A DNA stretch of 64,000 bases from Patescibacteria group bacterium. Lineage in GTDB: Bacteria > Patescibacteriota > Minisyncoccia > Phycocordibacterales > UBA9973. A model generated the notes under the pieces. The model saw nothing but the letters and a program-made list of their open reading frames with translations, searched no databases and was not told where the DNA came from. Positions 32,773 to 57,613 of this stretch are shown piece after piece; the first letter of the stretch is position 1, and each line of letters opens with the position of its first letter. The stretch covers positions 133,864 through 197,863 of the forward strand of contig JAZKIP010000001.1 of NCBI GenBank assembly GCA_040384805.1. The letters are read 5' to 3'. The position numbers and the translations under genes were made by a program.

Positions 32773-32803
32773 AACTCTATTCTATCATACTCATCCGAAC
32801 ATC

Positions 32804-32830: not shown

Positions 32831-32897
32831 CCATATAATTGAATGGTTATTTTTTCTATTTTAGCGCAAATTCGAACTCGTGATACAATAAATATAT

Positions 32898-33431: not shown

Positions 33432-33482
33432 CATTTAATTTTCTTTAAGTTTTCTGCTTGTCTATGCTTGTCTAAAAGGGCT

Positions 33483-33510
33483 TTCCGAACATCCTCCCAC
33501 GTTCGGAGCA
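33483..33510 (+). repeat. Hairpin-repeat family copy (consensus-like)
   Basis: TTCCGAACATCCTCCCACGTTCGGAGCA. Confidence 0.5.
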
Positions 33511-33616
33511 AACGAAAACCGCTTTAGAAATAAGGAAATTTTTGTGACCTTAATAGAAGTTTGAACCTAGTGATATAATACACTTAGGTTCTATTATTAA
33601 TTATAAAATAATATTT

Positions 33617-33802
33617 ATGAGAAAACTTAAATGTAAAGATATAAACCCAACTACAACATGCAATTACGAAGCTACTGCTGAGAGTGCTCAAGAGGTAGCT
33701 CTAAAAATGATAGAACATGCAAAAATCCACCATACAGCCGATGTAGAAAATATGACAGACGGAGAAATGATCAAAGCATTTGAAGCCAAAGTACATGAGT
33801 AG
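33617..33802 (+). CDS. DUF1059-like small protein
   Basis: 61 aa. MRKLKCKD...C....E.....HAK.HH pattern. Confidence 0.4.
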   Translation: MRKLKCKDINPTTTCNYEATAESAQEVALKMIEHAKIHHTADVENMTDGEMIKAFEAKVHE

Positions 33803-33835
33803 ATAAAGAGTATTTAATTATTAAATTAAAAAAAC

Positions 33836-34213
33836 ATGAAAACAAATAGTAAAAAATATGTTGATGGTTTTGTTATCCCGATAAAAAAGAAAGATCTAGC
33901 AGCTTACAAGAAGATGGCAGAATGGGGGGCTAAAATATGGAAAAAGAACGGTGCATTGGAGTATTTTGAGTGCGTGGGAGATGATTTAAAAGTACAAAAA
34001 GGCGGGGGACAAGGCTTTGCCAAACTTGCAAAGCTCAAACCAAATGAAACAGTAGTTTTTTCATGGATCGTATACAAATCTAAGGCGCATCGCGATCAGG
34101 TGAACAAGAAAGTAATGAGCGATCCTAGTATGAATAGTTTCGACCCCTCTACGATGCCATTTGATATGAGGCGTTTTGCTACTGGCGGGTTCAAACCAAT
34201 AGCGGAAGCCTAA
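33836..34213 (+). CDS. DUF1428 (YbaA-like) protein, paralog 1
   Basis: KYVDGFVIPIKKKDLAAYKKMAEWGAKIWKKNGALEYFECVGDDL ... VVFSWIVYKSKAHRDQVNKKVMSDP...MPFDMRRFATGGF aligns with E. coli YbaA along its full length. Confidence 0.65.
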   Translation: MKTNSKKYVDGFVIPIKKKDLAAYKKMAEWGAKIWKKNGALEYFECVGDDLKVQKGGGQGFAKLAKLKPNETVVFSWIVYKSKAHRDQVNKKVMSDPSMNSFDPSTMPFDMRRFATGGFKPIAEA

Positions 34214-34232
34214 TAAATTAAACTGTTAAAGT

Positions 34233-34263
34233 TCTTCGAACTTCGTTCCAAATTCGAAGCCAT
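34233..34263 (+). repeat. Hairpin-repeat family copy (diverged)
   Basis: TTCTTCGAACTTCGTTCCAAATTCGAAGCCA. Confidence 0.4.
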
Positions 34264-34490
34264 TACCCAATAGGGATTTGCCTGCTCTCTTTTTACAAGG
34301 TGTAGAATTTTCTTGTCGAAAAAAATTTTAATTTCCAAAATTGACTTATATATAAAACCATGCTACTATATGTTTTATAAATTAGTTCTTTGATAGATGG
34401 TTATTTATTGTTTGTTTTATTAAGTTCCTTCTGTTTCTTTAAAGAATTAGAAGGAGCTTAATAAATCTCTAACAATTAAAAAAACCAAAG

Positions 34491-34850
34491 ATGAAACAAG
34501 CGATTTTAATTATTGCAATTGCAAGCCTTCTGTCTTGTACTTCTGACATCCCCCAAACCACCCCGGAACCTGGGGCTGTTAGCAGCATAAAGCTGCAATT
34601 CGAAGACAATACCGTCGACTATTCGACGGATGAAAGTTTTCGTAAATTTAAGGTCGGCGATAAACTGACCGTTCAGCGGTCAAGTGATGGATATTCATCC
34701 TCTGAATGGGAAGTGTCCTCATCTCCCATTGTAAGGGATACTGTCACATGGGCTCCTTACTTAAAAACCTTCCCAGAAGCAAGCATATACGCGGGGCATA
34801 CATACCGGGAAGAGAGGGCCTACCGTAAGGCCGTAATAGTTAAAAATTAA
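34491..34850 (+). CDS. Putative lipoprotein
   Basis: MKQAILIIAIASLLSCTSD lipobox-type signal. It is preceded by a ~110-nt leader homologous to the one before ORF 36297. Confidence 0.45.
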   Translation: MKQAILIIAIASLLSCTSDIPQTTPEPGAVSSIKLQFEDNTVDYSTDESFRKFKVGDKLTVQRSSDGYSSSEWEVSSSPIVRDTVTWAPYLKTFPEASIYAGHTYREERAYRKAVIVKN

Positions 34851-34911
34851 GACCTGGGTCTAAACTCAAGGCTGATACTTACGTATCAGCCTTTTTTATT
34901 TCTTTAAAATA

Positions 34912-34943
34912 CCATTCGAACATCCTCCTGTATTCGAAGCTAC
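34912..34943 (+). repeat. Hairpin-repeat family copy (diverged), preceded by a terminator hairpin at 34869..34898
   Basis: CCATTCGAACATCCTCCTGTATTCGAAGCTA. Confidence 0.4.
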
Positions 34944-35286
34944 CTATTGACTTATATGATGAAATATGTTATTATATAAGTAATAATAATTCATTTTTTA
35001 CACGGTTTTTGATTACATAAAGAGATGACTTTAGGGTCTTTAAGGAAGTTAAAATCATCTATTTATAATAACCCAAAAAACTAAGAAATGAAAAAAATTT
35101 TTGTTTTTGTTCTTCTTGTAATTATGTTGACTTCTTGCGCAACAACCAAAAAGGATTGCCAGGGGGTTAAACATTATAAGCAAAAAGGCGGATTTTACAT
35201 GTAAGCCGCAGCAAAGCTATCTGGTTGTTTTAATTCCAGATAGCTTTTCTTTATTCACAATCTATAAATCATTCTAAATTTATCTC

Positions 35287-35631
35287 TTACAATCTCTTTT
35301 TAGAAAGTTTACCAAGTACATACTTTTGCGAAGGGCTTATCGGCTTATCTGTTCGGTGAGTACACCCTATCCAGCAGCACGGGCGGCGCTTCCCTTCTGC
35401 AAGTTCCGCAATAACTCTTTTGACATGTTCTTTTCTCGTCTCTTCGCTCTTGACCGAGACAGTCCAGCAGATCCACTCATTGCGCGCAAGCCGCGTAATA
35501 TCTTCCCACGCCGCAAGAGCCTTCCTGGAAGCAGTAAGAGCCTTTCGCAAATCCTCCGGTAATGCATGCGCCGTACCACTCGAAATTCCTTTTGTAGGCA
35601 TATAATTATAATAACATATAAACAAAAGCAT
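35287..35631 (-). CDS. YdeI/OmpD-associated family protein-like
   Basis: LPEDLRKALTASRKALAAWEDITRLARNEWICWTVSVKSEETRKEHVKRVIAEL resembles the PF13376-type pattern. Confidence 0.45.
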   Translation of the reverse strand: MLLFICYYNYMPTKGISSGTAHALPEDLRKALTASRKALAAWEDITRLARNEWICWTVSVKSEETRKEHVKRVIAELAEGKRRPCCWIGCTHRTDKPISPSQKYVLGKLSKKRL

Positions 35632-35697
35632 TATTGACTTACTTTAAGACATGTTAAAATGAGTAGGTAGTTGATTATAAATTTATAAAAAAATAAC

Positions 35698-36087
35698 ATG
35701 AAAACAAATAGTAAGAAATATGTTGATGGATTCGTTATCCCTCTTAAGAAAAAAGATGTTGCAGCATACCGCAAGATGGCAGAATGGGGAGCAAAAACGT
35801 GGAAAAAGTACGGCGCGCTCGAATACTTTGAATGCATTGGAGATGACTTGAAAGTGCAAAAGGGTATGGGGCAAGGGTTTGGAAAACTCGCGAAATTGAA
35901 GCCCGATGAAACTGTCGCCTTTTCATGGATCGTCTATAAGTCTCGCAAGCATCGCGATGAGGTTAACAAGAAAGTTATGGAAGAAATGAACAAACCGGCA
36001 AACAAGAAGAAATACGAAGACCAGCCTATGCCAATGGATATGAAACGGTTCACGTATGGCGGATTTAAACCGATAGTTGAAGCTTAG
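35698..36087 (+). CDS. DUF1428 (YbaA-like) protein, paralog 2
   Basis: ~75% identical to the protein from 33836..34213 over the N-terminal 100 aa. Confidence 0.65.
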   Translation: MKTNSKKYVDGFVIPLKKKDVAAYRKMAEWGAKTWKKYGALEYFECIGDDLKVQKGMGQGFGKLAKLKPDETVAFSWIVYKSRKHRDEVNKKVMEEMNKPANKKKYEDQPMPMDMKRFTYGGFKPIVEA

Positions 36088-36296
36088 TAAATTAAGCCCG
36101 TAAGCTCTTCAAAGACGCATCTTCGCGTTCATATATAAATTATTGACAATTTATATATTTTATATTACTGTAAACTACAGTAATAGTTCTTTGATATTAT
36201 CAATTTAGTTGTTAGATTTTATTAGGTTCTCCCAGTCTCTATAGGGAAACTGAGAGAACTTAATAAATAATTTTACTAACAATTAAATATTTCAAT

Positions 36297-36734
36297 ATGA
36301 AAAAAGGTAATTTTTCCATATTTTTTGTCATTGCAATTTCTATGTTTTCATCCTCCTGCCGGTTATCAGAAAAAAGAAACAACGAAAAAATAGGAGCAGC
36401 AAGCCCGGAAGCAGTGGCAATAGATACTCTAACAAATTCGGAAATTGAGGCTGCTTACAGAATTCTCCCTCTTGATCAGCAATTAATACTATGGAGAATT
36501 TCAACTGTGACCGATCCTGAAGATGCTTATCAGATATATTTACATGCTTATGTGAATCGTATGAGTACAGAAGTCGAAGACATAGCTTATGCAAAATGGG
36601 AAGAATTGATGGTCATCAAAATCGACACTATGACTGATCCTGAAGAAGTTTACCGTATTTACTTGGATCTTTACGGAGAGGTCATTGAATCGGCAGCGTA
36701 TCAAAGGTATAAAAAATTAGGAGGGAAAAATTAA
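36297..36734 (+). CDS. Putative lipoprotein with an internal repeat
   Basis: Signal/lipobox FFVIAISMFSSSC. Duplicated motif TDPEDAYQIYLHAY / TDPEEVYRIYLDLY. Confidence 0.45.
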   Translation: MKKGNFSIFFVIAISMFSSSCRLSEKRNNEKIGAASPEAVAIDTLTNSEIEAAYRILPLDQQLILWRISTVTDPEDAYQIYLHAYVNRMSTEVEDIAYAKWEELMVIKIDTMTDPEEVYRIYLDLYGEVIESAAYQRYKKLGGKN

Positions 36735-37239
36735 ATGCATTTAACCAATAATCAAAAGCCACCCTTATCCGGTGGCTTTTTTATTTCTGATCGTATGGAA
36801 AGTTATGTAGTGTGTATCCCTTTTCTGTTCATTACGGGCAGAAATACGGTCTAAAAGATATGCACTAAGCTGCTTTGGAGATATCGCACCAAGAGAGATC
36901 TATGGTGCTCGTACTCTACTGTCATTCAAAACAGAGAAAAGTTCTTATCCTCTAAGGATTTTTCTCTACTGTGACCAACACTTTGGTTTACTTAGGCCCG
37001 GAAGCTGAAGGGATTTTTAATTGTGCTGTTGCTGATGTTGCAAAAGCAATTGCCATGGCGAATAAAAACATTTTTTTCATTTGTCAGAATTTTAGGTATG
37101 ATAAAAAAGTTAAATATTCAATTCTTTTAAGAAGACCATAACAATGGTAATATGTCAATATACTGTTGCCGTCACATTATTTTCTCATATTATAAAAGCC
37201 GGGTCATATGACCCGGCTTTTATATACATAAATTAACAT

Positions 37240-37725
37240 TTAGTGGGCATGGGCTCCGTGACCGTCATGGCCGCGAGCAGTCAGTGCGCGAGCAATAATG
37301 ACAACAGCTAAGATGAGAAGTATGACAAGCAGCCACTGCCAGATCGAACTCGGCATAAATCCGCCCGAACCTCTGATAGAAAGCGCTGTTAACTCGTTTC
37401 CTGAATTCTGGCTCTGAGTTGTCACGACCGGCGGCAAACCGATCGGATTGGTCACTGTCGTAACCGTTGTTTCTTTTGGAAGAGGCTTTACCGGCTGGAT
37501 GACAGTTGTTGTCGTTGTTGTCGCATGTGTTGTTGTCTGCGTCGGCTGATTGCTAGCAGGCGTTGAGGTATATGATATATCCTCTCCAATAGGAATGACG
37601 GTAAAGGCGGGCTTTGGAGGAATTTGAGGATATGGGATATACGCGCTGGCAGATACAGTCTGGGCACTTACAAAGGCAATCGCAAAAGCGCTTAAAGATA
37701 TTAAAATGTATTTAAGGTTATTCAT
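37240..37725 (-). CDS. Secreted Thr/Pro-rich protein with a C-terminal TM anchor and a His-rich tail
   Basis: Signal peptide, a TTTHATTTTTTV low-complexity stretch, a C-terminal hydrophobic helix, then RGHDGHGAHAH. Confidence 0.45.
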   Translation of the reverse strand: MNNLKYILISLSAFAIAFVSAQTVSASAYIPYPQIPPKPAFTVIPIGEDISYTSTPASNQPTQTTTHATTTTTTVIQPVKPLPKETTVTTVTNPIGLPPVVTTQSQNSGNELTALSIRGSGGFMPSSIWQWLLVILLILAVVIIARALTARGHDGHGAHAH

Positions 37726-44390: not shown

Positions 44391-44457
44391 TAACCAAAAC
44401 AGCATCCTTTAATACTCCTGAGCATTATGCGCAGGAGTATTTTACAATGAAAGTCTC

Positions 44458-44567
44458 ATTTGTCGATAATATCTATTCACTGTTATAATGACCCAATCAT
44501 GGATTCAAAGTTTATTCACCTCCACACTCATTCCCACTATTCCCTCCTCGACGGATTGTCTAAAATC
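44458..44567 (+). repeat. Left 110-bp direct repeat: a copy of the dnaE promoter plus the first ~27 codons
   Basis: 108/110 nt identical to 57504..57613, including the TTGTCG/TTGTCA -35 box, a 17-nt spacer, the TTATAAT -10 box, and ATGGATTCAAAGTTTATTCACCTCCACACTCATTCCCACTATTCCCTCCTCGACGGATTGTC. Confidence 0.9.
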
Positions 44568-44654
44568 ATCATTAATAAAATTTATCGCCTTTGTACCCAG
44601 AGAAAATTATTGCCTAACTATCGAAAATCCAGCTTATTCTTACGATGCATATGA
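44460..44654 (+). pseudogene. Truncated duplicate of the DnaE N-terminus (first ~35 aa, then unrelated tail)
   Basis: MSIISIHCYNDPIMDSKFIHLHTHSHYSLLDGLSKI is identical to the start of ORF 57506. It diverges after the repeat boundary. Confidence 0.8.
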
Positions 44655-44776
44655 GTAAGGCGATTTAGATTGTCATAGGAAAATGAAGTAACATTTTGCC
44701 CGCTAACTGATAGCCAATACACATTCATAAATATGAACAAAATAAACCGCATGACAATCTTTTTTACTATTCCAAT

Positions 44777-45229
44777 CTAATAACTTTTAAAATACTCAAA
44801 AGTCATTTTCTTTATTATTTCAGCGATTGTGAGGGCATTCCTAATAAATTTTATCCTGGAATTTATTTCTCCATCGGAATCCCAGTTGTCTTTGTTTCCC
44901 CATATGTGCCTCAAAAGCTTCTCTTTGAATTCATCCAATTGGAGACTCTTTGCATCCTTTTTAAACTGCAATTTGATTTTAATTCTCTGATTAAGAAAAA
45001 TATCAAATCCGAAAAATGGGCCAACAGTTCCTACTTTATGGATTGCTATTATACTAAATGAGTCTCCTTTGCTATCCACAATTTTAGCATTCTCAAAATA
45101 TAATTTCCCCTTTTTTGTACATACTGTTAAATCACTGTCATTTCTAAAAAATGCTATAACTTCTTTGCCAAAACAAATTATAGGATATTCAAAACTATTT
45201 TTAGTCGTTTCGTCCATAATTGTTACCAA
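44777..45229 (-). CDS. Hypothetical protein, between the left boundary repeat and the first 37-bp array repeat
   Basis: 150-aa ORF only. Confidence 0.35.
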   Translation of the reverse strand: MVTIMDETTKNSFEYPIICFGKEVIAFFRNDSDLTVCTKKGKLYFENAKIVDSKGDSFSIIAIHKVGTVGPFFGFDIFLNQRIKIKLQFKKDAKSLQLDEFKEKLLRHIWGNKDNWDSDGEINSRIKFIRNALTIAEIIKKMTFEYFKSY

Positions 45230-45297
45230 TACTTTTAATTATATATAGTCCAGTTTTTAAGTTGCACAACCTCCTTTTAACGACACTAGTATGCAAG

Positions 45298-45911
45298 TTG
45301 TAATACAAGTAATGTTCGTTTCTTGATGACGATTTTCTTATTTTATATAAGCTGAATTTTCTTTGAATAGTAATGGCTTTTGTTATATTTCTTAGATAGT
45401 AGATTGCCCCATTTCCCCATCTTTTTTTATTACTTTCAGCGTCAAAACCAATTATCCCAAACTTTACGTTGTAATCCACGGAGACATAATAGTAGTAATA
45501 ATAGTATTCATGATTGCCAAGGTCTTTCAATTCAAATGTTAGCCTGAAATCTGTTTCGGAATCTCCTTCTTTCTTTTGCGATTTTAAGTATTCCTTAATT
45601 GCTTCAATTTTCTTTCTGCTCTTGTTTTTAGACAAATTTTTGTGATTGTAAATATCACAGACATATCTTGCTGAAACAACCTCTTGTTTATTTTTTTCTT
45701 CTAGAATATTGCGATTTGCGTGATTATTGATATTCGTCGCGATAGTACTATAATTTGCAGGGTTTTTTAATTTTCCTTGTGGCGGGTTATCCTTAAAATA
45801 GTCACGTAACAAGCGAACAACTTCTTTTAAATCTGTAGTGGAATACAGTTCCGTTTTCCGAACGCGGGCTGTAAGTTTCTTATATATATTAGGATCAATG
45901 GTTTTTTTCAT
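45298..45911 (-). pseudogene. Spacer-1 gene fragment, C-terminally truncated at the repeat junction
   Basis: ORF 45201..45911 reads through repeat 1. The tail translated from the repeat, LHTSVVKRRLCN, recurs in every ORF that crosses a repeat on the minus strand. Confidence 0.4.
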
Positions 45912-46827
45912 GAGTTCAAAATAGAAAATTGTGAAGATTTTTGTGAACTTTTTTTAAAAAATGTGTATGTCTCCGTTAACATGATCTATAGAAATGGTGG
46001 GAATTTTACCGCGATGGTAGCTAATAAAAAAACCCACCAGTTTTTTACTAGTGGGCCATCATCGGAAGGAACAGTATTCCGAGATGTAGCCTATAAGGTT
46101 GTTCAAAGCAACCAAGTGGCGTTCCTTTATTATACTGATTGTCAGTATAATAGCAACGTTATCTCTGTCTGTTCCAAATTAAACATGTAAAATCTATGTT
46201 TTATGGAACAGTATACATCCTTAAGATTCTCTGAATTAAGCGACGCAATTCTTGCCGGCTACAAGCATGATTTTGTAATACAAGTTAGTGGTACGCTTAA
46301 ATGCCTCTCAAAACCGGGTAAAGTTTATTCTCCTGATGAGGTTGATATAAGAGTCATTACTTCTTTGAAGAAGAAGGCTAGCCTTCTTCTTATTACTACC
46401 AATGATGGATTATACAAGGGAACGTCGGTGGATTATTGGGAATATTAAGTAAGGTCTAAATTTATTATCCTAAATAAGATTAGTTGCACAACCTCCTTTT
46501 AACGACACTAGTATGCAAGGTAATAATTTTTTTTATTTATAACATCATTGAGACATTGTAGAACAGTCTATTATTCTTCTCTTCACATTACGGAGAGCCA
46601 TCAGTAAAAAAAACCATCAACATTTGTTGATGGTTCACCCGTTCGGTAACAGCTTACCGAGAGATTATTTTACATAGTGGTGACACACTACGTAACGTAA
46701 TGATAATCTATCACTTATAGGTTATTTGTCAACTCTTTGTAGCCTGTTCCGACCATATCTGTAAAAAATATGGTTTATGGAACAATATAAGTTGCACAAC
46801 CTCCTTTTAACGACACTAGTATGCAAG

Positions 46828-47517
46828 GCTTATGATCCAGGAAATAAGTTCTCAATCCCATTTCAGTATTCAGCCTGTGGAATAGGAGTTGACACAAGCA
46901 AAGTCAAAAACTTCAAGAAAAGCTGGTCACTCCTCTTTGATGAAAAATATAAGGGCAAAATCAGTATGTTAGATGATATTCGTTATGGAATGGTTCCGGC
47001 ATTGAAGACCCTTGGCTATTCGCTAAACACAACTAACGAAACCGAATTAAGTCACGTTAGAGATTTATTGTTAAGGCAAAAATCTTTGGTCCGAGCCTAT
47101 ACTAGCGATACATATATTGATCTTCTCAAGTCAGGGGAAGTCTGGATAGCGTATGGATACACTGGGGATATTTATCAGGCGATAAAGGAAAATTCTAATA
47201 TTGTTTATTTTATTCCAGAAGAAGGGTCTGCGCTTGCAGTAGAAAGCATGTGCATCCTGAAAGGAGCTAAAAATAAAAAAACGGCCGAACAATTTATGAA
47301 TTATATTCTGGAACCTCAAGTAGATGCGGATATAGTAAATCACACTCAATATGCAACTCCAAATGATTCGGCTAAACAGTTTATTAACCCCAAAATTCTG
47401 AATGATGAGAATATTTTTCCAGGAAATTCAGTTTTTCTGAAAAGTGAGTATATACGAGATCTTGGTAAAGCAAATCTGCTATATGATAAACTATGGACCG
47501 AAATAAAGACCAAATAA
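46828..47517 (+). pseudogene. Spacer-3: N-terminally truncated PotD/PotF-like polyamine ABC substrate-binding protein fragment
   Basis: C-terminal ~230 aa of a spermidine/putrescine-binding protein fold (…GEVWIAYGYTGDIYQA…NYILEPQVDADIVNHTQYATPN…). It starts directly at the repeat junction with no start codon. Confidence 0.5.
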
Positions 47518-47610
47518 CAGTTTTTCCTTTGACAATTCAATAAACTTGCATCGTATTAGTTGGCGTAGTAAAATCTAATATTATTAGAGATTATAGGACT
47601 TCATGCCAAG

Positions 47611-48495
47611 ATGAATGAAAAATATAAGCTGAGAAATATCGAGCCCGGAATTTATCGCCAGCGAGGTATAGCCGAATTTCGCATTCTTGAATCCTCGATT
47701 TCAAAACGGGTATTTATAAAATACCTCAAGGAACTTTCCCGAAATTTAGGAATGCAACCACATCCAGAATTGCCAGAGCCAGTTATTACTTCAGCTTCTG
47801 GCTATACTTTACAAAAGCATGATGGCCTTGAAGGATTTCTATTCTGGCTAGAATCAGGACTTCACGCTTATTACTGGAAGCGTCCACAGATAATAACTGT
47901 GGACATGCATTCTTGTAAACCACTTATTGAAGAAGCTGTTGAAAATACAAGTAGAAGTAACTTTAGTATTGTTGAGTACAATTATGTAGACCTAGTTTTA
48001 AAAGAAAAGAAAGACAGTCAAAAAGTAAGGACCAGAATATATTCAATATCCCGAAAAGGCCTAATCGCTTCAAAACGCATCAAAAAAGATGAGTATATTT
48101 CTGGGTATTATGGTGAAGTTCACGAAATAAGAAGGACAAAGAAATTTTATAGAGCAGAATTTAAGAATGCAGTTCAATTCGCCGAACATAAATGGCGGGA
48201 ACCTGTCTTAAATAGTCTTGCACAAAACATTAACCATGCGTGTGTACCAAACTGCGGCATTAAAGGTATGTTTGATATAGTTGCCATTAGAAATATTGAA
48301 ATTGGTGAAGAATTATTGTTAGATTATGCAATGACAGAGGATTCCGACTTGAATATCCCTAAAGAAAAATGTTTATGTGGCACAAAAAAGTGCCGTGGAA
48401 AAGCAGTTCCTTATAAAAAGCTACCAAAAGAAGTCAAAGTATTATATAATAATTACATCTCCGAATGGTTAAAAAATAAGTATTATATCAACTAA
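47611..48495 (+). CDS. SET-domain protein (lysine methyltransferase-like), complete gene inside spacer 3
   Basis: NHACVPNC (SET NHxCxPN motif), EELLLDY (ELxxDY motif), and the post-SET Cys cluster CLCGTKKCRG. Confidence 0.65.
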   Translation: MNEKYKLRNIEPGIYRQRGIAEFRILESSISKRVFIKYLKELSRNLGMQPHPELPEPVITSASGYTLQKHDGLEGFLFWLESGLHAYYWKRPQIITVDMHSCKPLIEEAVENTSRSNFSIVEYNYVDLVLKEKKDSQKVRTRIYSISRKGLIASKRIKKDEYISGYYGEVHEIRRTKKFYRAEFKNAVQFAEHKWREPVLNSLAQNINHACVPNCGIKGMFDIVAIRNIEIGEELLLDYAMTEDSDLNIPKEKCLCGTKKCRGKAVPYKKLPKEVKVLYNNYISEWLKNKYYIN

Positions 48496-48796
48496 CATTA
48501 GCCATATCAGTTCCCCTGCATATAATATAGTTTGAAAAAACGCTAAAGTTTTGAAGGCTCAAGCAGCTGTATATTCGCGGGTTATTAAATCTGCAAAATC
48601 GTGAGGTTTAAGCAATACCATGTTAAAATTGAATGGACAAAGCTTTCCCTGATGAAATTTATAGCGTTTGTTCCTATCAAGAACTATTGCTTATTGATAC
48701 AAGATCCAACTCATATATTTGGAGTAATTGCAGGCACAGAGATTATGGAATTTTTAACCGTTGCACAACCTCCTTTTAACGACACTAGTATGCAAG

Positions 48797-49227
48797 TGAT
48801 CCACGCAACGGCCCATGAAAGTCGCTTGAATAGGACATCGATCTTGGAAATGTCAGAACATGGTGCAGACCCATACAGTATCGAAGAATTGATCGCAGAA
48901 ATGGGAGCCTCATACCTCTGCTATCATGCCGGCATTCTTCCGACCCCAATAGGAGACTATTTCGCCTACCTGAACGGCTGGCTCTGGATAAGCTTCGGCA
49001 AGATACTCACCTTGTTGTTACAGCAAGCGTATATGCGCAGCGGGCGGTTGACTACATTCTGGGGTATAAGGAGGCAACCAGCGAGAAAAAAGAGGAAGCG
49101 GAAGTGCCCGAAGCCATGGATGGGGAATAGGAGACATCTATACACAAAGCCCGGACTTTTCCGGGCTTTTTATAATTACTATTTCTTTTTTACTTCGTTA
49201 TATTTCAAACAAAAATTACAAGTATGA
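48797..49227 (+). pseudogene. Spacer-4: 3' fragment of an ArdC-like antirestriction/zincin gene, starting mid-gene at the repeat junction
   Basis: Begins ...IHATAHESRLNRTSILEMSEHGADPYSIEELIAEMGASYLCYHAGI (the HExxH...RLNR ArdC C-terminal metallopeptidase motif). The first 258 nt are 100% identical to 51706..51963 in spacer 6, then the two copies diverge. A terminator hairpin AAGCCCGGACTTTTCCGGGCTTTTT follows. Confidence 0.55.
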
Positions 49228-49256
49228 AAACAAGTATTCTGATTAACAATTTCATT

Positions 49257-49502
49257 CTATTCTTTATCTCTTATTTCTTGTCTTGCTCTTGAAAGATTTT
49301 CAAAGTAGTTCCCCTCAAAAGTTTCAGACACAATTTTCTCTAATGATGATTCAATATCAAAAAGAATTCTTTCTTCTGCTTGATCTTCAAATAGCAACGG
49401 GTGTTCTTTCTGATTGAATTTGGTTAACCATTCGAGCAGAACGAGAGCTTCATTACTACTTAGTTTTAGGAATATGTTTTTATTGTCTTTTATAACTTCC
49501 AT
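49257..49502 (-). CDS. Hypothetical small protein inside spacer 4
   Basis: 81-aa ORF. Confidence 0.35.
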   Translation of the reverse strand: MEVIKDNKNIFLKLSSNEALVLLEWLTKFNQKEHPLLFEDQAEERILFDIESSLEKIVSETFEGNYFENLSRARQEIRDKE

Positions 49503-49738
49503 AATTTATAGACCTCCGTGTTCAAGAACATTTTTTAATTGTACGGGATTAAGTTTCCAGCCGCTAATAAATTGTCCCGAAGGACTAGAGATAACATTAA
49601 GACCAGTATTTGGATTGAGATAGTGTATTACTGATTGACCTCTATATGTTCCATTAATAGCTTGAACACCTGCGGAATTGTTGCACAACCTCCTTTTAAC
49701 GACACTAGTATGCAAGAAATGGCGAGCAAATAAAAATT

Positions 49739-50380
49739 TTGGGCGTAGTGGCTCTTCAAAGAAATAGATCAATAATTAAAAAAATAGATAGAGTAATATC
49801 TACCATTTGGGACATAGCCAAGAAAAATTCTACTCCTAATGAAAATATAGTTATCCTGGAGATTTCAGAAGTTACCGGGATATCTCCAAAAGAAGTTAGT
49901 CTTTGTTTGCACCTCATTTCTGATTATGGTCAGTATGTTACGGGGAGTATAAGCGAGCAGAACACAAGGCTCTACACCGCAATTCAGATAAACGAAGATA
50001 TAAATGTATACTATAGGTATAGCGAATTTCCTGAGGCAAGTTCTCTCCTTGCATTGGATGAAATTAAGAATCAGACGCAACCCCAGGAGTATTTTAAGGA
50101 TGATGAAATTCTGACAATCGGTTGGCAATTGGATAGATTAAGGGAAGAATTTAAAAACGGCATATGTGTATTACAAACCGGACAGGAAATCATCTGGACG
50201 GATAATCAAGAAGATATCGCAGAAATGAAAATTCAGCTTTCCAAATTATCGAAGAAAAACTGGTTTCAACTCTTTATTGGTAAATTATTTTCAAAAGGCA
50301 TTGATAAGCTTTTCTTTGAACCTCTGTTTGAAAAGATTAAGAATTTTGTTGATCCGGCAATAAGTGGATTACTGAATTGA
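49739..50380 (+). CDS. Hypothetical protein inside spacer 5
   Basis: 213-aa ORF starting 23 nt after repeat 5. Confidence 0.4.
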   Translation: MGVVALQRNRSIIKKIDRVISTIWDIAKKNSTPNENIVILEISEVTGISPKEVSLCLHLISDYGQYVTGSISEQNTRLYTAIQINEDINVYYRYSEFPEASSLLALDEIKNQTQPQEYFKDDEILTIGWQLDRLREEFKNGICVLQTGQEIIWTDNQEDIAEMKIQLSKLSKKNWFQLFIGKLFSKGIDKLFFEPLFEKIKNFVDPAISGLLN

Positions 50381-50544
50381 GGCTGCGCTTAATGCGATCC
50401 GTTACAATTTGCTGTTTTCCGTCCAATGATAAACTGTGTTTTCAGTGGCTTCGACAACTTTACATAATTACTTATGCCGGTTCTTCTGCTTCCTGTCATT
50501 TCTTCCCCGCTGCTGAAGAGAATTTATGTAGGGATTAGCAATCT

Positions 50545-50919
50545 TTATTCATCTGAGAATTCTTCAAGATCGAGTATGGCAAGCCCTTTGATTCCGTCTG
50601 GTGTCCTGATCCAGTATACGACAGAACTCGAATCAAAACACACTTCTAGATTGGAAATACATGCGTGTATTCGATAGCTGGTGGCAAGATCAGAGGAGCA
50701 ACGGAGTAAGCCATCTCTAAACTCAAACTTGACGGTATAACCATCCGCTAGGGCTTTTATGACTACCGGTGAGCATAGTTCTAATTCTGAAAAAGCTTTC
50801 ATTAAGAAAGGGTAATTGACTTCCTTCATGCTAGGCTGTGATTTCTCCGGATTATTCCGACCGGAATCTGAAGAGGCCGGCATTTCATACTGGCATTGAA
50901 TAGTAGATTTCTGTTCCAT
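50545..50919 (-). CDS. Hypothetical protein inside spacer 5
   Basis: 124-aa ORF. Confidence 0.35.
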   Translation of the reverse strand: MEQKSTIQCQYEMPASSDSGRNNPEKSQPSMKEVNYPFLMKAFSELELCSPVVIKALADGYTVKFEFRDGLLRCSSDLATSYRIHACISNLEVCFDSSSVVYWIRTPDGIKGLAILDLEEFSDE

Positions 50920-51264
50920 AACATTATTTTTTAGAGTTTGATAATGTCGGAACAGCCTGCGGAGAGGTTGACAGATCAGTCTATAAATGACAGAATGTCA
51001 TTATGTTACGTAGTGGTGGTACACTATGTAAAATAATCTCTCGGTATGCTGTTACCGAAGGGGTGAACCATCAACAAAATGTTGGTGGTTTTTTTCTTTG
51101 CTAATAGTCTATCCCAATAAAAGAAGAAACAAATGGCTGTAATCCACTGTCTTAATGCTGTTATAAATAAAAAAAATTATTACATTACTGTATTAAAAGC
51201 TGCGTTAATGGGAAACCGCTTAAAACCGTTGCACAACCTCCTTTTAACGACACTAGTATGCAAG

Positions 51265-52045
51265 CAAAAACCTCTATCTCACCTGGGACCAAATCAAGGA
51301 GGTCGGCGGATCGGTAAACCGGGGGCAGAAAGGGCATGTCGTTGCCTACTGGAAAATGATCTCGAAAGAACAAACCCGAATGGTACACGAGAAAAATGAA
51401 CTTACTCCGCTTCTCCGGTACTACAAAGTGTTTAACATTTCGCAGTGCAGGGACCTTCCCGATAACCTACTTACTCGGGCGGAGACGTTCCCACAGGGTA
51501 TTGACGCTGGCAGTTCTTCCAAAAAGAAAAATTCGATCTTCTGCGAGGCGATCTACAACAACATGCCTCTGCCCCCAGAGATTAAGTATGAATCCCAGAA
51601 GGCTCTCTATGACCCCGCTCAGGATTACGTCAGCATGCTCAGGAAAAAGAGCTATAAAGAGCCTTCAGGCTACTATGCAGCCCTGTTCCATCAGTTGATC
51701 CACGCAACGGCCCATGAAAGTCGCTTGAATAGGACATCGATCTTGGAAATGTCAGAACATGGTGCAGACCCATACAGTATCGAAGAATTGATCGCAGAAA
51801 TGGGAGCCTCATACCTCTGCTATCATGCCGGCATTCTTCCGACCCCAATAGGAGACTATTTCGCCTACCTGAACGGCTGGCTCTGGATAAGCTTCGGCAA
51901 GATACTCACCTTGTTGTTACAGCAAGCGTATATGCGCAGCGGGCGGTTGACTTTATTTTGGGATATAAAGAGGCAACCAGTAAGAAAAAAGAGGAACGGG
52001 AAGGGTCCGCAGCCATCGAAGGGGAATAACAAATATTTAACATAA
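51265..52045 (+). pseudogene. Spacer-6: N-terminally truncated ArdC-like antirestriction gene (longer fragment than in spacer 4)
   Basis: The frame is open from the repeat junction: KNLYLTWDQIKEVGGSVNRGQKGHVVAYWK (ArdC N-terminal ssDNA-binding domain), then ...LFHQLIHATAHESRLNR.... No start codon. A terminator hairpin AAGCCCGGATACCGGGCTTT follows. Confidence 0.55.
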
Positions 52046-52288
52046 TAAGCCCGGATACCGGGCTTTCTTTAATTAAGTGTTAACTATTAGCCATTATAAC
52101 TTGTTATTAAAAATCTCACTAGTTTTTTGAAATTACCTTAGAAAACCTCTAATTTACTACCTTTGCCATCCATTAAAGGAAATAAACATACAGTAAGATT
52201 ATCCTTAATGTGTATATAGGTCGTTTACAATAAGTTAACAAGTGGTACAATAATGGTAAGCTTTTTGTCACCTTAAATTTATTACATT

Positions 52289-52537
52289 ATGAAAAAGTAT
52301 TTCATACCAACGTTTAGACTTCCTTTCTCTTGGAAAGAGAAATTATTGGATAAGGTTGTTTATCAGCCTTATAAGTATTTTAATGGGGTTTATAAGGAAA
52401 CCGGCATTCTTGTCACAGAGAACCAACTAAATGAGATTGTAGAAATATTGTCTCTCAAATTGGTGTCCCAAAAGATGTCCGCTGAACCTGACATTATTGA
52501 AGTAACCGTCAGAAAATTGGACACGGTAGCAGCCTAG
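52289..52537 (+). CDS. Hypothetical small protein inside spacer 6
   Basis: 82-aa ORF. Confidence 0.3.
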   Translation: MKKYFIPTFRLPFSWKEKLLDKVVYQPYKYFNGVYKETGILVTENQLNEIVEILSLKLVSQKMSAEPDIIEVTVRKLDTVAA

Positions 52538-52571
52538 ACGAATACCATATTTAGGTCCCTTAGGGGACCTT

Positions 52572-53542
52572 TTATTTTATCAGCTTATCGGAGTAAAAAA
52601 TATGATTCATAAATTCACTTATTAACTTAAAATCTGAATTCTTTAATCCGTCAATTAACAGCTTATATATATTCTTTCCTGTAAGGTTTATTCTATGGAT
52701 TACGTTGTTTTTTATGTAAGCAATTTCTTGTAAGTGGTAATCCTCCTTGGTTAAATCATAAAATATCCGGTCTCTATCTTTATTTAGCGCTATAGCTGGT
52801 CCTGAAATTTCGATGTTTGGTTTTTCAGAAAGTATTTTAAGAACTTCCGTAAGACACTGGGCAAAATCAAAAGTTCTGTTGTATAGCTTGTTCAATAACT
52901 CTAACTGATAAAACCAAATTAAATAGCGATTAACTCGCCTAATCTGGATTAATTTGAGATTTCCCTGAAGTGGGTTAAATGAAAACGTAGTTTCAAGTGC
53001 AGTATGAATTGAACTAATGGAATAGTCAATTAATTTACGCGAATCCTTATTTAAAGATTCACTAGCATAAAAAACGATGTCAGTGATAATAGCAAACGCA
53101 TCCGCTTGGTAGTCTGCTTCTTCTACCACTTTCGGAAAATTTCCAATCCCTTGTACCGTTCGCCGATCTAAATTGTGGAACTTATGCAGTGCTTCGTGAA
53201 GCACATAAAGTCGACAAGCTTGATAAAATTTATCATAGTTTAATGGATGATTACCTGTAAGAAATCTGTGATAAATGGATGCGAAGAAATTCACTTTAAT
53301 TTTCCACTGTTTACTGATATCCAAAAAATCTATATCTTGGTCCTCATCTACAAGCCCTTCTACGATGGTATTAGAAAAAAATTGGCTCGTATCATCCAAC
53401 TCAAAATAATTAGAATATACCTCCGCCGGAAATTTCCAATAACTACTATGACAGAATATATCTTCGGGATGAATTTGATATCCGCTTAAAAGGGTTTTAT
53501 ACCACAGCTTCTTATTAAAATCCTGGTTTTTAATAAATTTCT
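52572..53542 (-). pseudogene. Spacer-6: HExxH-containing gene (HEALHKFH), N-terminally truncated at the repeat 7 junction
   Basis: The ORF reaches the repeat with no ATG; the ORF track uses a GTG inside the repeat. Possible ImmA/IrrE-like metallopeptidase, low confidence. Confidence 0.35.
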
Positions 53543-53868
53543 GTTGCACAACCTCCTTTTAACGACACTAGTATGCAAGGATTTTTGAATTGCATTCAAA
53601 TAGCCAAGAAGGTTTTGTATCAGTAGCTTCCTATAGGCTTCTACGAGTAAAACACTATTTCCTCCAGCCGGTAAAGCTGTGTAATATCTTGATTCTAACA
53701 TTCCCCGGTGTAATTAGTTCTGCGACTGATGTGTCTCCATTGTTTTTGTGATAAACAGAATAGGTGCAAAATCAATTTCTACCTTTTCAATTTCGAGCAA
53801 TGTTTGTTCTGTTTGAATATTGTCGTTCATTTTATTATGGGTTGAGTTGTTAATCGATGGCGCCAAAA

Positions 53869-54789
53869 TCAGAAACATTGACGTCCATAGTATTTTTCCC
53901 TTCGCAAAAAAAAATTTTTAAGTTGGTAATATCTTTTGTCTATTAATGACCTGCTTTGACCAGCCCCCGAAATATCATTTTTGGTGACTTTAAACTCATT
54001 ATAAAATGCATCTTTAAATGATTTCGAATTTAAGTCTTCTATTTCTTTGGCTGGATAGTATATCATTACGCATTTGCCTGTTTTAGCATTACCTATATCG
54101 CTGATATGAAGAAAAAGGCCAGCCGCAAACCCAACATGGCCAACATATGAATCAATATCACGTCCACAATTCATAACGTGGTAGGTGGGCTCATTGTTTA
54201 CCTCACTCTGCAGCTGTAGTACGAAGTTAGTACCTTTTATAACAACAGTGCCTTTCCCCCAATTTTTGCCATGGTAGTATTGAACTGTATCACCTATCTC
54301 GTTTTGCCATTTAATGAGAAAGGCAATCCTCCCCAAAATTGCTTCTCCCTCGTTCTCTAAGTTTTCTCTAAACCGGCCGTCCTTGTCATAGAAGCATTCC
54401 CAATAACCGTCGAGTTTTTGTAATTGTAGGATAGAGGATGTCGGAGTGGGTACTTGGCCCCCAGACGAAAAGAATTCACCCCTGTCACATCCATACGCAT
54501 AACGATACATCGTATTTATGAATTTCTTTCGGAAGGTCCGTACACCGTGCTTAGAATGATGAAAAAGAACTGCCAAAGGTTTGTTGGAACGAATGTTAAT
54601 ATTTTTTAGCGCTTTTCCTTTATTGATGGCTTCGTATAATGGATCGTAATTTCGCAAATTGGAGTTTAATATCTTATCAGGATTTTCGATTGCATTTCCT
54701 GTCGTGCTTTTATATTTTTCAATTACTGCCTTTCTAAGTTCGCTTAACTCGTGGTGCTCAAGTGTAATATTCCCAATTTCTGCTGTCAT
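53869..54789 (-). CDS. Hypothetical protein inside spacer 7
   Basis: 306-aa ORF. Confidence 0.4.
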   Translation of the reverse strand: MTAEIGNITLEHHELSELRKAVIEKYKSTTGNAIENPDKILNSNLRNYDPLYEAINKGKALKNINIRSNKPLAVLFHHSKHGVRTFRKKFINTMYRYAYGCDRGEFFSSGGQVPTPTSSILQLQKLDGYWECFYDKDGRFRENLENEGEAILGRIAFLIKWQNEIGDTVQYYHGKNWGKGTVVIKGTNFVLQLQSEVNNEPTYHVMNCGRDIDSYVGHVGFAAGLFLHISDIGNAKTGKCVMIYYPAKEIEDLNSKSFKDAFYNEFKVTKNDISGAGQSRSLIDKRYYQLKNFFLRREKYYGRQCF

Positions 54790-56115
54790 TTTTTACCCAG
54801 TTAAGTAAAGTAAATCAGAATTAAGCCCAAAAATACCATTAAATGCACACAATTAGGTAAAAAACTATAGTTTACTCTATGTAGGTGAAATACAATGGTT
54901 AAAATATTTTATTTTTTTAACTTATTTACCTAAATTTGGAATAGGGATACAGGTTTTCTGGCTCTTAAAAAAAGAGCCTAACGGTCTAACCACCGTTAAG
55001 CCCTGTAATAGCGGTAGTCTCGTTGACAATTATACCGCCTAGATAACAGTCTAACATGTTTTTCTAGTATAAATAACGTTAGACATATAGTATAGGTTTT
55101 TGTCAACTTGATTAGACCGCTAAGAAGCGATCCGATCAGGTTTTTTTATTTATATACACAAAATTAGAAATATACAATATGGTGGCATGGCTACATAAAA
55201 AATTGGGCAGACATCCCCCATAAAGGAAGAATCTGCCCACATGAAATATACCTGCTTTCGCAGACGTACAATTCAACTAGTCATTGCAAATGTATATAAA
55301 GCGGAAGCAGGTTAAAAAATCTTTTTTAACCTGTAATACGCTTTACAATGATAAGCAACATTAACAAGTGTCCTTTCCATGGGCACACCTCCGTTACATC
55401 AGCATCGAGTACAGACGAATTAGTCAGCCTTAAATCGTTGCACAACCTCCTTTTAACGACACTAGTATGCAAGTATTCATTAAGGGGCAGCGCTTCACTA
55501 CGAGGTGTCTGCCCTTTTTGTGTATATATGCGCCATAATATTATATTTGAACGAAAAATAAACAGTCTCAAATAAAAAAAGCCAGACTCGACAATTTATC
55601 TATTGCGGAGAGCTGGCTAAACCGTGTAGTGCTGCTGCTAGACGAACTTGACTTTTTAAGGCATTGAATGATAATATATTAGCAGCGGTTTAGCTTAAAA
55701 TTGATACCGCACAATTCACCGCTCAGGCCACGAACCTGAGCGGTTTTTATTTTTGTCTAAGGATATTGAAATAGGGACGGATAGTAAAGATAAGGGTAAA
55801 CATTTATTCGTTGCACAACCTCCTTTTAACGACACTAGTATGCAAGTATTTGTTTAGTTTAAATAAAAAACCTGACCAGATCGCTATTCGTGCGGTCTAA
55901 TCAGGTTGACAAAAAACCTATAATGTTGCCTAACGTTATTTATACTAGAAAAACATGTTAGACTGTTATCTAGGCGGTATAATTGTCAGCCAGACTACCG
56001 CTAATAGGGTTACGACGGTCTGATCACCGCCGGCCCTATTTTTTTATACTATGTGTATATGATTAAATTTGTTGCACAACCTCCTTTTAACGACACTAGT
56101 ATGCAAGTGCTTGTA

Positions 56116-56451
56116 TTATATATCTTTTTTAGGTTTTTTTCCAATTTTCCCCGAAAGTTGAATGATTTCAAAGGGTGGCATAGCTGCCGCTTTTTCTTTG
56201 GAAAGAATATCAAGATTAATAAAGCAAGATTGGCATAAACTGCTAATAAATACCTTTTCAGTTTTCTTGATGAACAATCCGCTCAAAAGGGTCTGGACTG
56301 TGCGCTTCTCCTTTTGATATAGCGGACCTATGTATAGATTTCTCATAATTGGTTTAAGTCCATAATTCTTACATACGATAACAGCTTTATTCCTATGTCG
56401 CCAATTATTGCTTTCCCAACTGATAATTATAGTCGAAGTGATGTTATTCAT
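56116..56451 (-). CDS. cas2: Cas2-like protein (divergent)
   Basis: ~111 aa. N-terminal IIISWESNNWRHRNKAVIVCKNYGLK aligns with the Cas2 pattern YDI...RR.Kv.k.L..yG (YD replaced by WE). Overlaps cas1 by 8 nt, as is typical for cas1-cas2 operons. Confidence 0.5.
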   Translation of the reverse strand: MNNITSTIIISWESNNWRHRNKAVIVCKNYGLKPIMRNLYIGPLYQKEKRTVQTLLSGLFIKKTEKVFISSLCQSCFINLDILSKEKAAAMPPFEIIQLSGKIGKKPKKDI

Positions 56452-57457
56452 TTTTTAAATTAAAAAGCTCTGTAGCATTGAATGCTTTTAGTGTCTTTTC
56501 TTTTCCTTGAAAGAATCGCGCAAGCGATCGCACTTGATCTTCCATGATCTGCTTGAGCGTATACTGTTTGCCTTTCCATATCACTTTTTCCTCCCAACGA
56601 TTTAAAATGGCTTCCGTGATGATAGCTATTCCTTCGGGCGAAAGTTTATATTTACCCTTGCCGATTGATTCAAACAATGACCGTTTACTCATTTTCTTTT
56701 CAATTATGAGCTGAAAGAGCACAGAGTCAACCACCGGCACCCGAAATTCTTCCACCAAATCGCAGACAAGCGCCGGTTTGCCGTACCGTTCTGTATGACA
56801 AAGACCGAAATAAGGATCAAGACCTACATAGAGGCATAATCGTTCCATTTCAGTATACAAAAAACCGTAACCATAATTAATAATATTGTTAAATTTATCC
56901 CCTCGTTTTCTGTCACGACCAGCGAAACGAATCAGTTTCCGAAGAGCAAAGAAATACGTGTTAGCAATTTGTCCTTCAATCCCCATGAGCTGATCTCGAT
57001 TCTTAGGATGATTCGGAATTGTATCTACTGTTTTAAGTATCGCTTCGCATTGTAAGATCTCTGTAGAAAAATCCTTTTTATATTTATAACCCAAATATCG
57101 CAAATGCAATATTTGATTAGTGCATTTACCTTTTATAAAAATCTTGGCAATGCTAAAAGATTCAGGAGATGTGGAAACTTCAAGCTGAGCGCGACGCAAA
57201 CTTGCAATTCCTTTTGGGGCACTTGAAAAGATTCTGCCGATAGGTATAGCGCGAAAATCCATATATACAATATCAACTTCGTGTTTAAGGGCGAGCTCAA
57301 CAGCAGCAGTAGTAAGAGAAGCGGGCCGGAGAATACGTATCTTTTCAACTCGTATCGCCGGATATTCCTTCTTCTCCTTCATCTTTGGGAACGTGAGAAC
57401 AAAACGTTCTCCACTTGCACGAATACTTGTACCATATTCATTGACGATTATATCCAT
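56444..57457 (-). CDS. cas1: CRISPR-associated endonuclease Cas1
   Basis: Hallmark C-terminal motifs NNIINYGYGFLYTEMERLCLYVGLDPYFGLCHTERYGKPALVCDLVEEFRVPVVDSVLFQLI (Cas1 NYGY...GLDP..G.LH...R.sL..DL.EeFRp..vD). N-terminal beta-rich domain. 337 aa. Confidence 0.9.
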   Translation of the reverse strand: MDIIVNEYGTSIRASGERFVLTFPKMKEKKEYPAIRVEKIRILRPASLTTAAVELALKHEVDIVYMDFRAIPIGRIFSSAPKGIASLRRAQLEVSTSPESFSIAKIFIKGKCTNQILHLRYLGYKYKKDFSTEILQCEAILKTVDTIPNHPKNRDQLMGIEGQIANTYFFALRKLIRFAGRDRKRGDKFNNIINYGYGFLYTEMERLCLYVGLDPYFGLCHTERYGKPALVCDLVEEFRVPVVDSVLFQLIIEKKMSKRSLFESIGKGKYKLSPEGIAIITEAILNRWEEKVIWKGKQYTLKQIMEDQVRSLARFFQGKEKTLKAFNATELFNLKNE

Positions 57458-57503
57458 ATATTTTAGGGATAAATAATAAACACATTATATTACAGAACGT
57501 CCA

Positions 57504-57613
57504 ATTTGTCAATAATATCTATTCACTGTTATAATGACCCAATCATGGATTCAAAGTTTATTCACCTCCACACTCATTCCCACTATTCCCTCCTCGACGG
57601 ATTGTCCAAAATC
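57504..57613 (+). repeat. Right 110-bp direct repeat: the native dnaE promoter and 5' coding region
   Basis: See 44458..44567. -35 TTGTCA and -10 TTATAAT lie upstream of the dnaE ATG at 57545. Confidence 0.9.

Follow-up and report, generated by a model that had tools for sequence, protein, structure and literature searches.

Within a stretch of 64,000 nucleotides (nt; hereafter the window) taken from a ~200-kb contig (JAZKIP010000001.1) of a Patescibacteria group bacterium, two genes for homologues of the adaptation proteins of CRISPR systems lie beside an array in which short repeats alternate with inserts of up to more than 2 kb. The genes are cas1 (56444-57457, minus strand, 337 amino acids (aa)) and a divergent cas2 (56116-56451, minus strand, 111 aa), which overlap by 8 nt. 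The array (45261-56107, minus strand) is made of ten identical 37-nt repeats, which in the orientation of the cas genes read CTTGCATACTAGTGTCGTTAAAAGGAGGTTGTGCAAC. The 37-mer GTTGCACAACCTCCTTTTAACGACACTAGTATGCAAG has ten exact copies in the window, all in one orientation and with plus-strand starts at 56071, 55810, 55437, 53543, 51228, 49680, 48760, 46791, 46483 and 45261, for an expectation of 0 in shuffled sequences, and both repeat ends bear an inverted TGCA...TGCA motif. The nine inserts, S1 to S9, measure 224, 336, 1857, 2278, 1511, 883, 1932, 271 and 1185 nt, respectively. As an earlier note on this DNA had already stated, the stop codon of cas2 (56116-56118) is separated from the nearest repeat (56071-56107) by 8 nt (56108-56115, minus strand). 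Three stretches of the window are recovered at 100% identity in an independent Logan assembly (run SRR26324625): 56080-57541, which contains cas1-cas2 and stops inside the first repeat; 53551-55053, which starts inside a repeat and reaches into S3; and 46799-48785 (contig L132), which comprises S7 together with portions of both bordering repeats. Since this assembly reproduces them, the repeat-insert junctions do not stem from a single assembler.

The 337-aa protein matches the general Cas1 profiles (Pfam Cas_Cas1 PF01867, 7.8e-64; TIGR00287, 1.3e-68, 231.6 bits against a cutoff of 71.7), and its catalytic residues, E161, H221, D233 and E236, are invariant in a 37-sequence alignment of the family and align to the active-site positions of the solved Cas1 structures 4n06 and 7cr6. 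The hallmark motifs noticed earlier are thereby corroborated, and the protein is a bona fide Cas1, with intact catalytic residues and a predicted integrase function. No subtype-specific Cas1 model reached its cutoff, the scores being 155.7 of 560 bits for I-G, 143 of 385 for I-D, 124 of 385 for I-C and 106 of 300 for V, which are the groups of CRISPR adaptation proteins to which this Cas1 is nearest. The earlier note had also drawn a comparison with casposases, which holds in terms of function but not of kinship: the protein scores 103 bits to the CRISPR Cas1 of A. fulgidus (4n06) versus 70 bits to a casposase (6opm) and, judging from these bit scores to solved structures, would be nearer to the former.

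No curated Pfam or NCBIfam model matches the 111-aa protein at threshold. Nevertheless, several lines of evidence agree with its previous assignment to Cas2. When its family profile was compared with all PDB sequences, five matches were obtained, all of them Cas2, and sub-threshold matches to Pfam CRISPR_Cas2 (PF09827) are found in 17 out of 20 family members (best 1.5e-4; 0.12 for the window protein). The AlphaFold2 (AF2) model, with a predicted local distance difference test (pLDDT) score of 81.6 that exceeds 90 for the core residues 5-72, shows a beta-alpha-beta-beta-alpha-beta core, and the top 20 Foldseek matches of this model in PDB are all Cas2 (best 5.9e-5). Furthermore, a gene of this family adjoins nearly every cas1 of the clade. 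By profile and model, the protein is thus a divergent Cas2 with a predicted ferredoxin-like fold. Its family invariants are W12, C27, G31, G42, E48, C73, C76 and E95, and the C-terminal part, which includes a low-confidence region of the model, carries C73-x-x-C76 and a conserved FE[LI][IV] motif. It had been observed that the canonical YDI motif with the metal-binding aspartate reads WES in this protein, and indeed the aspartate aligns to E13 (W12-E13-S14), in a column occupied by E, Q, R or F across the family. Because that column is not conserved, the nuclease function of this Cas2 has probably been lost, although its structural role in an integrase complex can persist despite such a loss.

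The cas1-cas2 pair has its own promoter (57484-57512, minus strand), a perfect TTGACA-17-TATAAT that matches 12 of 12 consensus positions and diverges from the overlapping plus-strand promoter of dnaE; this promoter and the 5' untranslated region are kept upstream of cas1 in two related loci (L001 and L003). Since cas2 nearly reaches repeat 1 without a terminator, transcripts of cas1-cas2 probably extend into the proximal inserts. The locus had been described as leaderless, which is too strong: there is no separate AT-rich leader, given that repeat 1 begins 2-38 nt past the cas2 stop throughout the clade, but a short GGCT(C) motif directly precedes repeat 1 in most loci. Any leader function must therefore overlap the 3' end of cas2, which probably serves as the leader. 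The repeat next to cas2, previously regarded as the terminal one, is more likely the leader-proximal repeat, on the newest side of the array. At the other end, no degenerate terminal repeat above chance was found in the trailing region past the last repeat, repeat 10 (44568-45260, minus strand), which holds a 150-aa open reading frame (ORF) of unknown family.

What the repeats enclose is best illustrated by S4 (51265-53542) and S6 (48797-49679). The first base of S4, directly at the repeat border, already belongs to an ardC gene that is 5'-truncated and lacks the ArdC N-terminal domain. The insert also contains two further ORFs, of 82 aa and 325 aa, and the frame of the latter enters the next repeat. 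S6 starts, likewise at the exact repeat edge, with a second ardC fragment, 431 nt deeper into the gene. Both inserts thus hold the 3' part of ardC, as supported by Pfam and PHROG matches, and they are 92% identical to each other over 384 nt. From its first base (51265), S4 shares 83% nucleotide identity over 811 nt with a Bacteroidota contig (L127, 6794-7600), and from its own first base (48797) S6 shares 87% over 375 nt with the same contig (7225-7595). The nearest full-length ArdC (P0144, 312 aa, 85% protein identity) sits on this contig, which is 77 kb long and belongs to a Bacteroidota metagenome-assembled genome (MAG), in an integrative element bounded by large serine recombinases, and a Logan contig of that same element (L128) comes from run SRR26324625, as does the Logan contig with cas1-cas2 of the window. 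At the aligned points of the Bacteroidota element L127 there is no resemblance to the 37-nt repeat. The DNA on the other side of the repeat from each fragment is not the missing part of ardC and, since the DNA beyond the repeat is unrelated to this gene, the repeats did not land in a contiguous island that already existed. S4 and S6 are therefore two independent fragments with arbitrary end points that were placed between repeats, and the alignments show a foreign origin of at least these two inserts. In a similar way, S7 (46828-48759) begins with a 5'-truncated potD (equivalent to residues 134-360 of a 361-aa homologue; best PotD homologue 51% identical), which is followed by a complete gene for a SET-domain protein.

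S1 (55847-56070, 224 nt) is non-coding, hairpin-rich and 88% identical to part of S3, in inverted orientation, and S8 (46520-46790) is short, non-coding and 79% identical to part of S5, also inverted; their single-stranded DNA folding z-scores are -5.4 and -3.4. The inverted recurrences (79-88%) lie inside the longer inserts at 55006-55162 and 50940-51186, and S1 and S8 both contain TTGACAAAWAACCTATA. The idea that they are promoter-plus-small-RNA genes found no support beyond their hairpin richness. Rfam searches of the window, and permissive ones of the array, yielded tRNAs elsewhere and chance-level matches, no Rfam family matches S1 or S8, and a match to the trans-activating CRISPR RNA (tracrRNA) was rejected (28.7 bits versus a cutoff of 70). 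With S6 included, three of the nine inserts re-sample sequence already present in the array, which points to a restricted pool of source DNA. As for other possible sources, 7.3 kb of the array had no blastn match in phage and plasmid collections, three insert proteins had no relatives in IMG/VR, and the inserts did not match the remaining window.

This architecture is not restricted to the window. Cas1 relatives at 45-72% identity are numerous and all annotated as Patescibacteria or candidate phyla radiation (CPR) lineages, and a genome scan gave 447 Cas1 relatives. The related loci were covered to 10 kb per side. For 19 of them the sequence extends 3 kb or more downstream; of these, 12 carry between two and eight repeats, five carry one and two lack the repeat. 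The repeats follow a clade consensus, [CG][CT]TGCA-N10-GTCGCAAAAAGGA-NN-TTGTGCAAC, and they are 100% identical within each of the 12 related arrays, with degenerate distal repeats in L001 and L112. The best-conserved core of the repeat, GTCGCAAAAAGGA(G), resembles a Shine-Dalgarno sequence, and its spacing from the start codons of the captured ORFs is not a suitable one. Accordingly, a function of AAGGAG in the repeat as a Shine-Dalgarno-like element driving captured ORFs was rejected (an ATG start is found in 1 of 40 inserts, and the ORFs are in both orientations), and the core is more likely a candidate protein-binding site.

Including the nine of the window, the 13 arrays contain 41 inserts of 140-4242 nt, plus one of 8291 nt (median 1472), with no short spacer among them. 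Insert edges fall inside ORFs in 59 of 82 cases (72%), compared with 82% for random cuts of the flanking genomes, and some inserts, among them a 673-nt fragment encoding tetratricopeptide repeats (TPR; L005) and a 386-nt fragment (L013), consist of one frame open at both ends. The Pfam content of the inserts includes a DnaX that is 5'-truncated at the edge, a 3'-truncated FAD monooxygenase, a 5'-truncated ATP-grasp protein, TPR, and the C-terminal portion of an RHS toxin next to a leucine-rich repeat (LRR) protein, with ORFs in both orientations. Altogether, the inserts appear, from their sequences, to be arbitrary fragments of foreign DNA, and not gene cassettes. The nearest outgroup Cas1 proteins (30-37% identity) come from DPANN archaea, Methanosarcina, Chloroflexota and Bacillota, and canonical arrays, with a 73-77-nt period, accompany 26 of 55 outgroup loci versus none of the 29 clade loci, the window having none either.

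Nor was the rest of a CRISPR-Cas system found near the adaptation genes. There is no effector gene in the window, where the large ORFs outside the module are all housekeeping genes; around L001 and L003, the genes called to a distance of 10 kb comprise no cas gene besides cas1; and no effector is present among the ten largest ORFs in the flanks of seven other clade loci, eight of these ORFs being housekeeping genes and two having no Pfam family. The latter two lie upstream of cas1 (L005:7865-9844, 660 aa; L006:5604-8399, 932 aa), are not conserved between loci and are unlikely to be Cas partners. PADLOC, applied via alignment to 73 flanking ORFs, was uninformative, two ORFs with reverse-transcriptase models making up most of its summary. 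Models of reverse transcriptases and homing endonucleases are matched by two flanking ORFs, each 330 aa or longer, which look like group II introns. The exact repeat of the window is absent from the JGI metagenomes, and the repeat family is absent from IMG/VR; a degenerate pattern of the family retrieved 42 stretches from the JGI metagenomes, each with one exact copy and never a dense array. Hence, the same repeat was not seen with spacers of normal length in the window, the JGI metagenomes or the 29 clade loci, and the proposal of a stand-alone, adaptation-only capture module next to a long-insert array is supported by the absence of effectors from the window and the flanks examined and by the clade-wide occurrence of the architecture.

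How should this locus then be understood? The reading that we consider most probable (at about 0.65) is that it derives from CRISPR adaptation and is an effector-less archive of long DNA, into which integration proceeds without a length ruler. The Cas1-Cas2 integrase, transcribed from its own strong promoter, would recognise the 37-bp repeat with inverted TGCA ends directly after the cas2 stop and would attach free pieces of double-stranded DNA, through their 3' ends, to both borders of the repeat, after which gap repair would duplicate the repeat, as in the acquisition of CRISPR spacers. Owing to the lack of a ruler, fragments of ~0.14 to >4 kb with arbitrary ends would be accepted. The substrate would be DNA that enters or accumulates in the cell, here including that of mobile elements of the Bacteroidota type present in the same community, and the outcome would be a growing, heritable array of foreign gene fragments with occasional whole genes. 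What we infer from these comparisons is that Cas1-Cas2 catalyses the reaction, that new DNA goes in at the repeat nearest cas2 and that the ruler has been lost; the perfect identity of the repeats fits a duplication at each event, and the decay of distal repeats fits integration of the CRISPR type. Possibly, the ruler was lost through the divergent C-terminal third of Cas2, with its CxxC and FE[LI][IV] motifs.

With CRISPR adaptation modules the locus shares the Cas1 catalytic residues, the ferredoxin-like fold of Cas2, the placement of cas1-cas2 beside identical repeats (37 nt here) with partly inverted termini, the degenerate distal repeats, and inserts from foreign mobile DNA in which one element family is re-sampled. 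The differences concern the inserts, of 140-4242 bp and no fixed length here versus ~26-72 bp in CRISPR, the lack of any effector gene found and of a separate AT-rich leader, and a Cas2 whose acidic residue is not conserved and which has the extra C-terminal CxxC/FE[LI][IV] region. There is also a precedent for a change in Cas1/Cas2 architecture that alters the accepted spacer length: Wright et al. reportedly described in 2019 a type V-C Cas1-only mini-integrase with spacers of 17-19 bp, in which Cas2 is absent and the effector Cas12c is present. There, however, the spacers became shorter, whereas here the inserts are longer and Cas2 is retained. With the short spacers and an effector missing from the sequence covered, the locus lacks the defining features of CRISPR-Cas, and it equally lacks those of casposons and integrons. 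Within the limits of sequence analysis, it is a variant of the CRISPR adaptation machinery that is both new and clade-wide. No description of Cas1-Cas2 arrays with kb-sized inserts was found in the incompletely covered full-text literature or in the FLSHclust terascale CRISPR survey. The broader proposal of a new functional class, i.e., a widespread, Patescibacteria-specific, ruler-less Cas1-Cas2 that writes kb-sized incoming DNA into a repeat array without an effector, is more tentative, and we would place it slightly short of even odds.

Regarding its role, we tentatively favour a memory of, or decoy for, invading DNA, transcribed by read-through from the cas promoter and somewhat like the eukaryotic Piwi-interacting RNA (piRNA) clusters, because one element family was sampled repeatedly and because of the anti-restriction gene content. 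Those clusters are likewise loci that gather fragments of invading elements in either orientation; nonetheless, the analogy is functional, there being no homology between them and no small-RNA machinery identified here. The alternative role is that of a gene-acquisition platform, which is suggested by the complete genes that inserts occasionally hold. The earlier note had gone further in suggesting a role unlike that of an immune locus, yet the re-sampling of one mobile-element family would also be expected of an immune memory.

Several observations weigh against the archive of long DNA. The activity and polarity of the integration are, to begin with, deduced from sequence patterns. There is no orientation bias nor any clear PAM-like (protospacer-adjacent) motif in the inserts, only a weak A-richness of the first 3 nt: in cas orientation, of 40 inserts, 16, 20 and 21 have A at the first, second and third positions, and 17 and 19 have T at the fourth and fifth, compared with a background of 0.28-0.29. 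This bias could reflect end processing or a PAM-like preference. Furthermore, an effector or a short-spacer array could lie outside the 64 kb of the window and the 10-kb flanks, and for ~30 copies of the repeat in metagenomes the available sequence is devoid of cas genes. In the 10.1-kb L098, whose repeat is the same as that in L022, L107 and L118, the repeat is located 60 nt from the contig end and the upstream 10 kb contain neither cas genes nor a second repeat, which implies either inserts of at least 10 kb or solitary repeats. Three further points concern the unit and its surroundings: in L009 and L026 there is a repeat upstream of cas1, one MAG carries four 1.5-kb cas1-cas2-repeat units that are 99.7-100% identical, which hints at mobility of the unit, and the module of the window is enclosed by a 119-nt duplication that the archive model does not account for. 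In the case of L026 (9969-11123, on the contig of L024), the arrangement is repeat, a segment with cas1 from residue 94, cas2 and the leader, and again repeat; this self-derived insert stops exactly at the leader-repeat junction, and the upstream full-length cas1 on that contig has a premature stop (L024). Fragments ending at a site nicked by Cas1 might, to judge from that junction, be captured in their turn.

The repeats away from cas1 also bear on a first alternative, in which the locus would be an integron-like cassette platform, with the 37-nt repeat as the recombination site and insert-plus-repeat units excised and re-inserted by Cas1 or a host recombinase. As in integrons, an integrase gene adjoins a growing array of kb-sized units split by short sites that makes up a reservoir of foreign DNA; complete genes do occur in the inserts (the SET-domain gene of S7, the LRR protein of L001 and a protease in L122); and besides the repeats upstream of the cas genes in L009 and L026 there are orphan repeats. 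L122 (789-4857), for instance, consists of a degenerate repeat (5 mismatches), a complete gene for a 1277-aa S8-type protease, a cas2 remnant (the last 26 codons) with the leader, and a perfect repeat; the array is situated between ssb and efp, without cas1, and L088, L106 and L110 are similar. A locus of this type looks like a decayed or orphan two-repeat array. Despite these coincidences, integrons use the tyrosine recombinase IntI, whereas the module encodes Cas1-Cas2 and no recombinase, tyrosine recombinases included; its repeats are identical instead of being variable, attC-like hairpins; and its units are arbitrary fragments in both orientations and not complete, co-oriented, promoterless ORFs. 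Moreover, insert edges cut ORFs at nearly the random rate, some inserts are internal gene fragments, and the edges of the ardC fragments fall on two arbitrary points, at which L127 has nothing like the 37-nt sequence, all of which makes a cassette platform improbable.

About equally improbable is that the cas1-cas2-repeat unit mobilises itself in the manner of a casposon, the array and the low-GC island being cargo or debris and the 119-nt repeat an insertion scar. The guanine-cytosine (GC) content of the module is indeed low (0.36, versus 0.44 in the remaining window and 0.40 in the Bacteroidota contig), and on either side of the module lies one copy of a direct repeat of 119 nt (44449-44567 and 57495-57613, 96% identical), so that the boundary repeat of the earlier note stands, with a length of 119 and not 110 bp. 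The distal copy (44449-44567, plus strand) comprises the dnaE promoter and the first 23 codons and marks the module boundary, and the proximal one (57495-57613, plus strand) constitutes the functional promoter and 5' end of dnaE (ATG at 57545, gene end at 60733); the duplicated segment ends within the cas1 promoter, between its -35 and -10 boxes. The target-site duplications of casposons are far shorter, at 14-15 bp. No inverted repeats were found at the module ends, nor was a flank duplication resembling the 119-nt repeat found in 15 other related loci. The holding of the same position beside dnaE by the cas1 of L003 suggests vertical inheritance, and the 119-nt bracket might have arisen if a circular copy, derived from a relative whose cas1 abuts dnaE as it does in L003, was inserted in the Campbell manner.

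A hint of mobility is provided by the 1.5-kb units, which begin 102 nt upstream of cas1 and end with the final base of repeat 1. Four to five copies (L005, L009, L024 and L026 of the MAG MFD05512.bin.1.167, and L021) are 98.6-100% identical within unrelated flanks, and their left end is always TGTCC[AG]CG. Neither terminal inverted repeats (TIRs) nor target-site duplications (TSDs) were seen at these units and, this being so, and given that joining the flanks after removing the unit in silico restores no ORF, a simple transposon insertion was rejected. With casposons the locus shares a Cas1-family integrase and DNA insertion at the kb scale without an effector, as well as, in view of that one MAG, a unit that may be mobile. 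It differs from them in the presence of Cas2, in the lack of PolB among the module ORFs and of TIRs, and in that the inserted DNA consists of heterogeneous foreign fragments within an array, and not of the element itself. Mobility of the unit would leave the arbitrary foreign fragments between identical repeats unexplained.

Somewhat less probable still is a degenerate or secondary CRISPR locus, whose working effector and normal array would be elsewhere and whose long inserts would be secondary insertions into a decayed array. The genomes were inspected in part, and one set of adaptation genes can serve several arrays in trans, which leaves room for this scenario. Nonetheless, the 41 inserts of the 13 arrays include no short spacer, perfect repeats do not speak of decay, and the Cas1 and Cas2 residues are kept across homologues of 45-72% identity. 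The distribution of canonical arrays (0 of 29 clade loci versus 26 of 55 outgroup loci) and the fact that the repeat family never forms a dense array in the JGI metagenomes argue in the same direction. Finally, chimeric joins at the repeated 37-mer during assembly or binning are very improbable, given that, even if all sequences are metagenome-assembled and repeats interrupt short-read graphs (it is inside them that the Logan contigs end), foreign contigs would need the 37-mer at both ends, an independent assembler yields S7 with parts of both its repeats at 100% identity, and MAGs produced in several studies and by several assemblers share this architecture, one of them an 876-kb chromosome-level assembly.

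Beyond the module, the window has further low-GC stretches (0.31-0.39), at 29968-37700 and 4000-6000, which adjoin a tRNA-Asn (29968-40) and a tRNA-Glu (5505-77), respectively. The one at 30-37.7 kb contains small accessory genes (two DUF1428 proteins, GrpB, an HD domain protein and a CAAX protease), and 29968-37700 is possibly a genomic island.

If the archive of long DNA is confirmed, it would mean that a CRISPR integrase has been freed from its length ruler in nature and operates without interference, which would widen the remit of Cas1-Cas2. The locus would also offer a concrete and testable case for the long-discussed adaptation modules that act as stand-alone DNA-capture systems, and an enzyme pair of natural origin that may insert kb-sized DNA at a 37-bp site would be of interest for DNA writing and recording. 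In addition, since standard CRISPR finders cap the spacer length, arrays with long inserts are systematically missed. For the Patescibacteria themselves, such arrays would be a record of the foreign DNA entering their cells, including mobile elements of co-resident and possibly host bacteria, which could help to identify the hosts or donors of these uncultured episymbionts. They would provide either an immune or decoy memory with long inserts, read as long transcripts, or a gene-capture device for minimal genomes.

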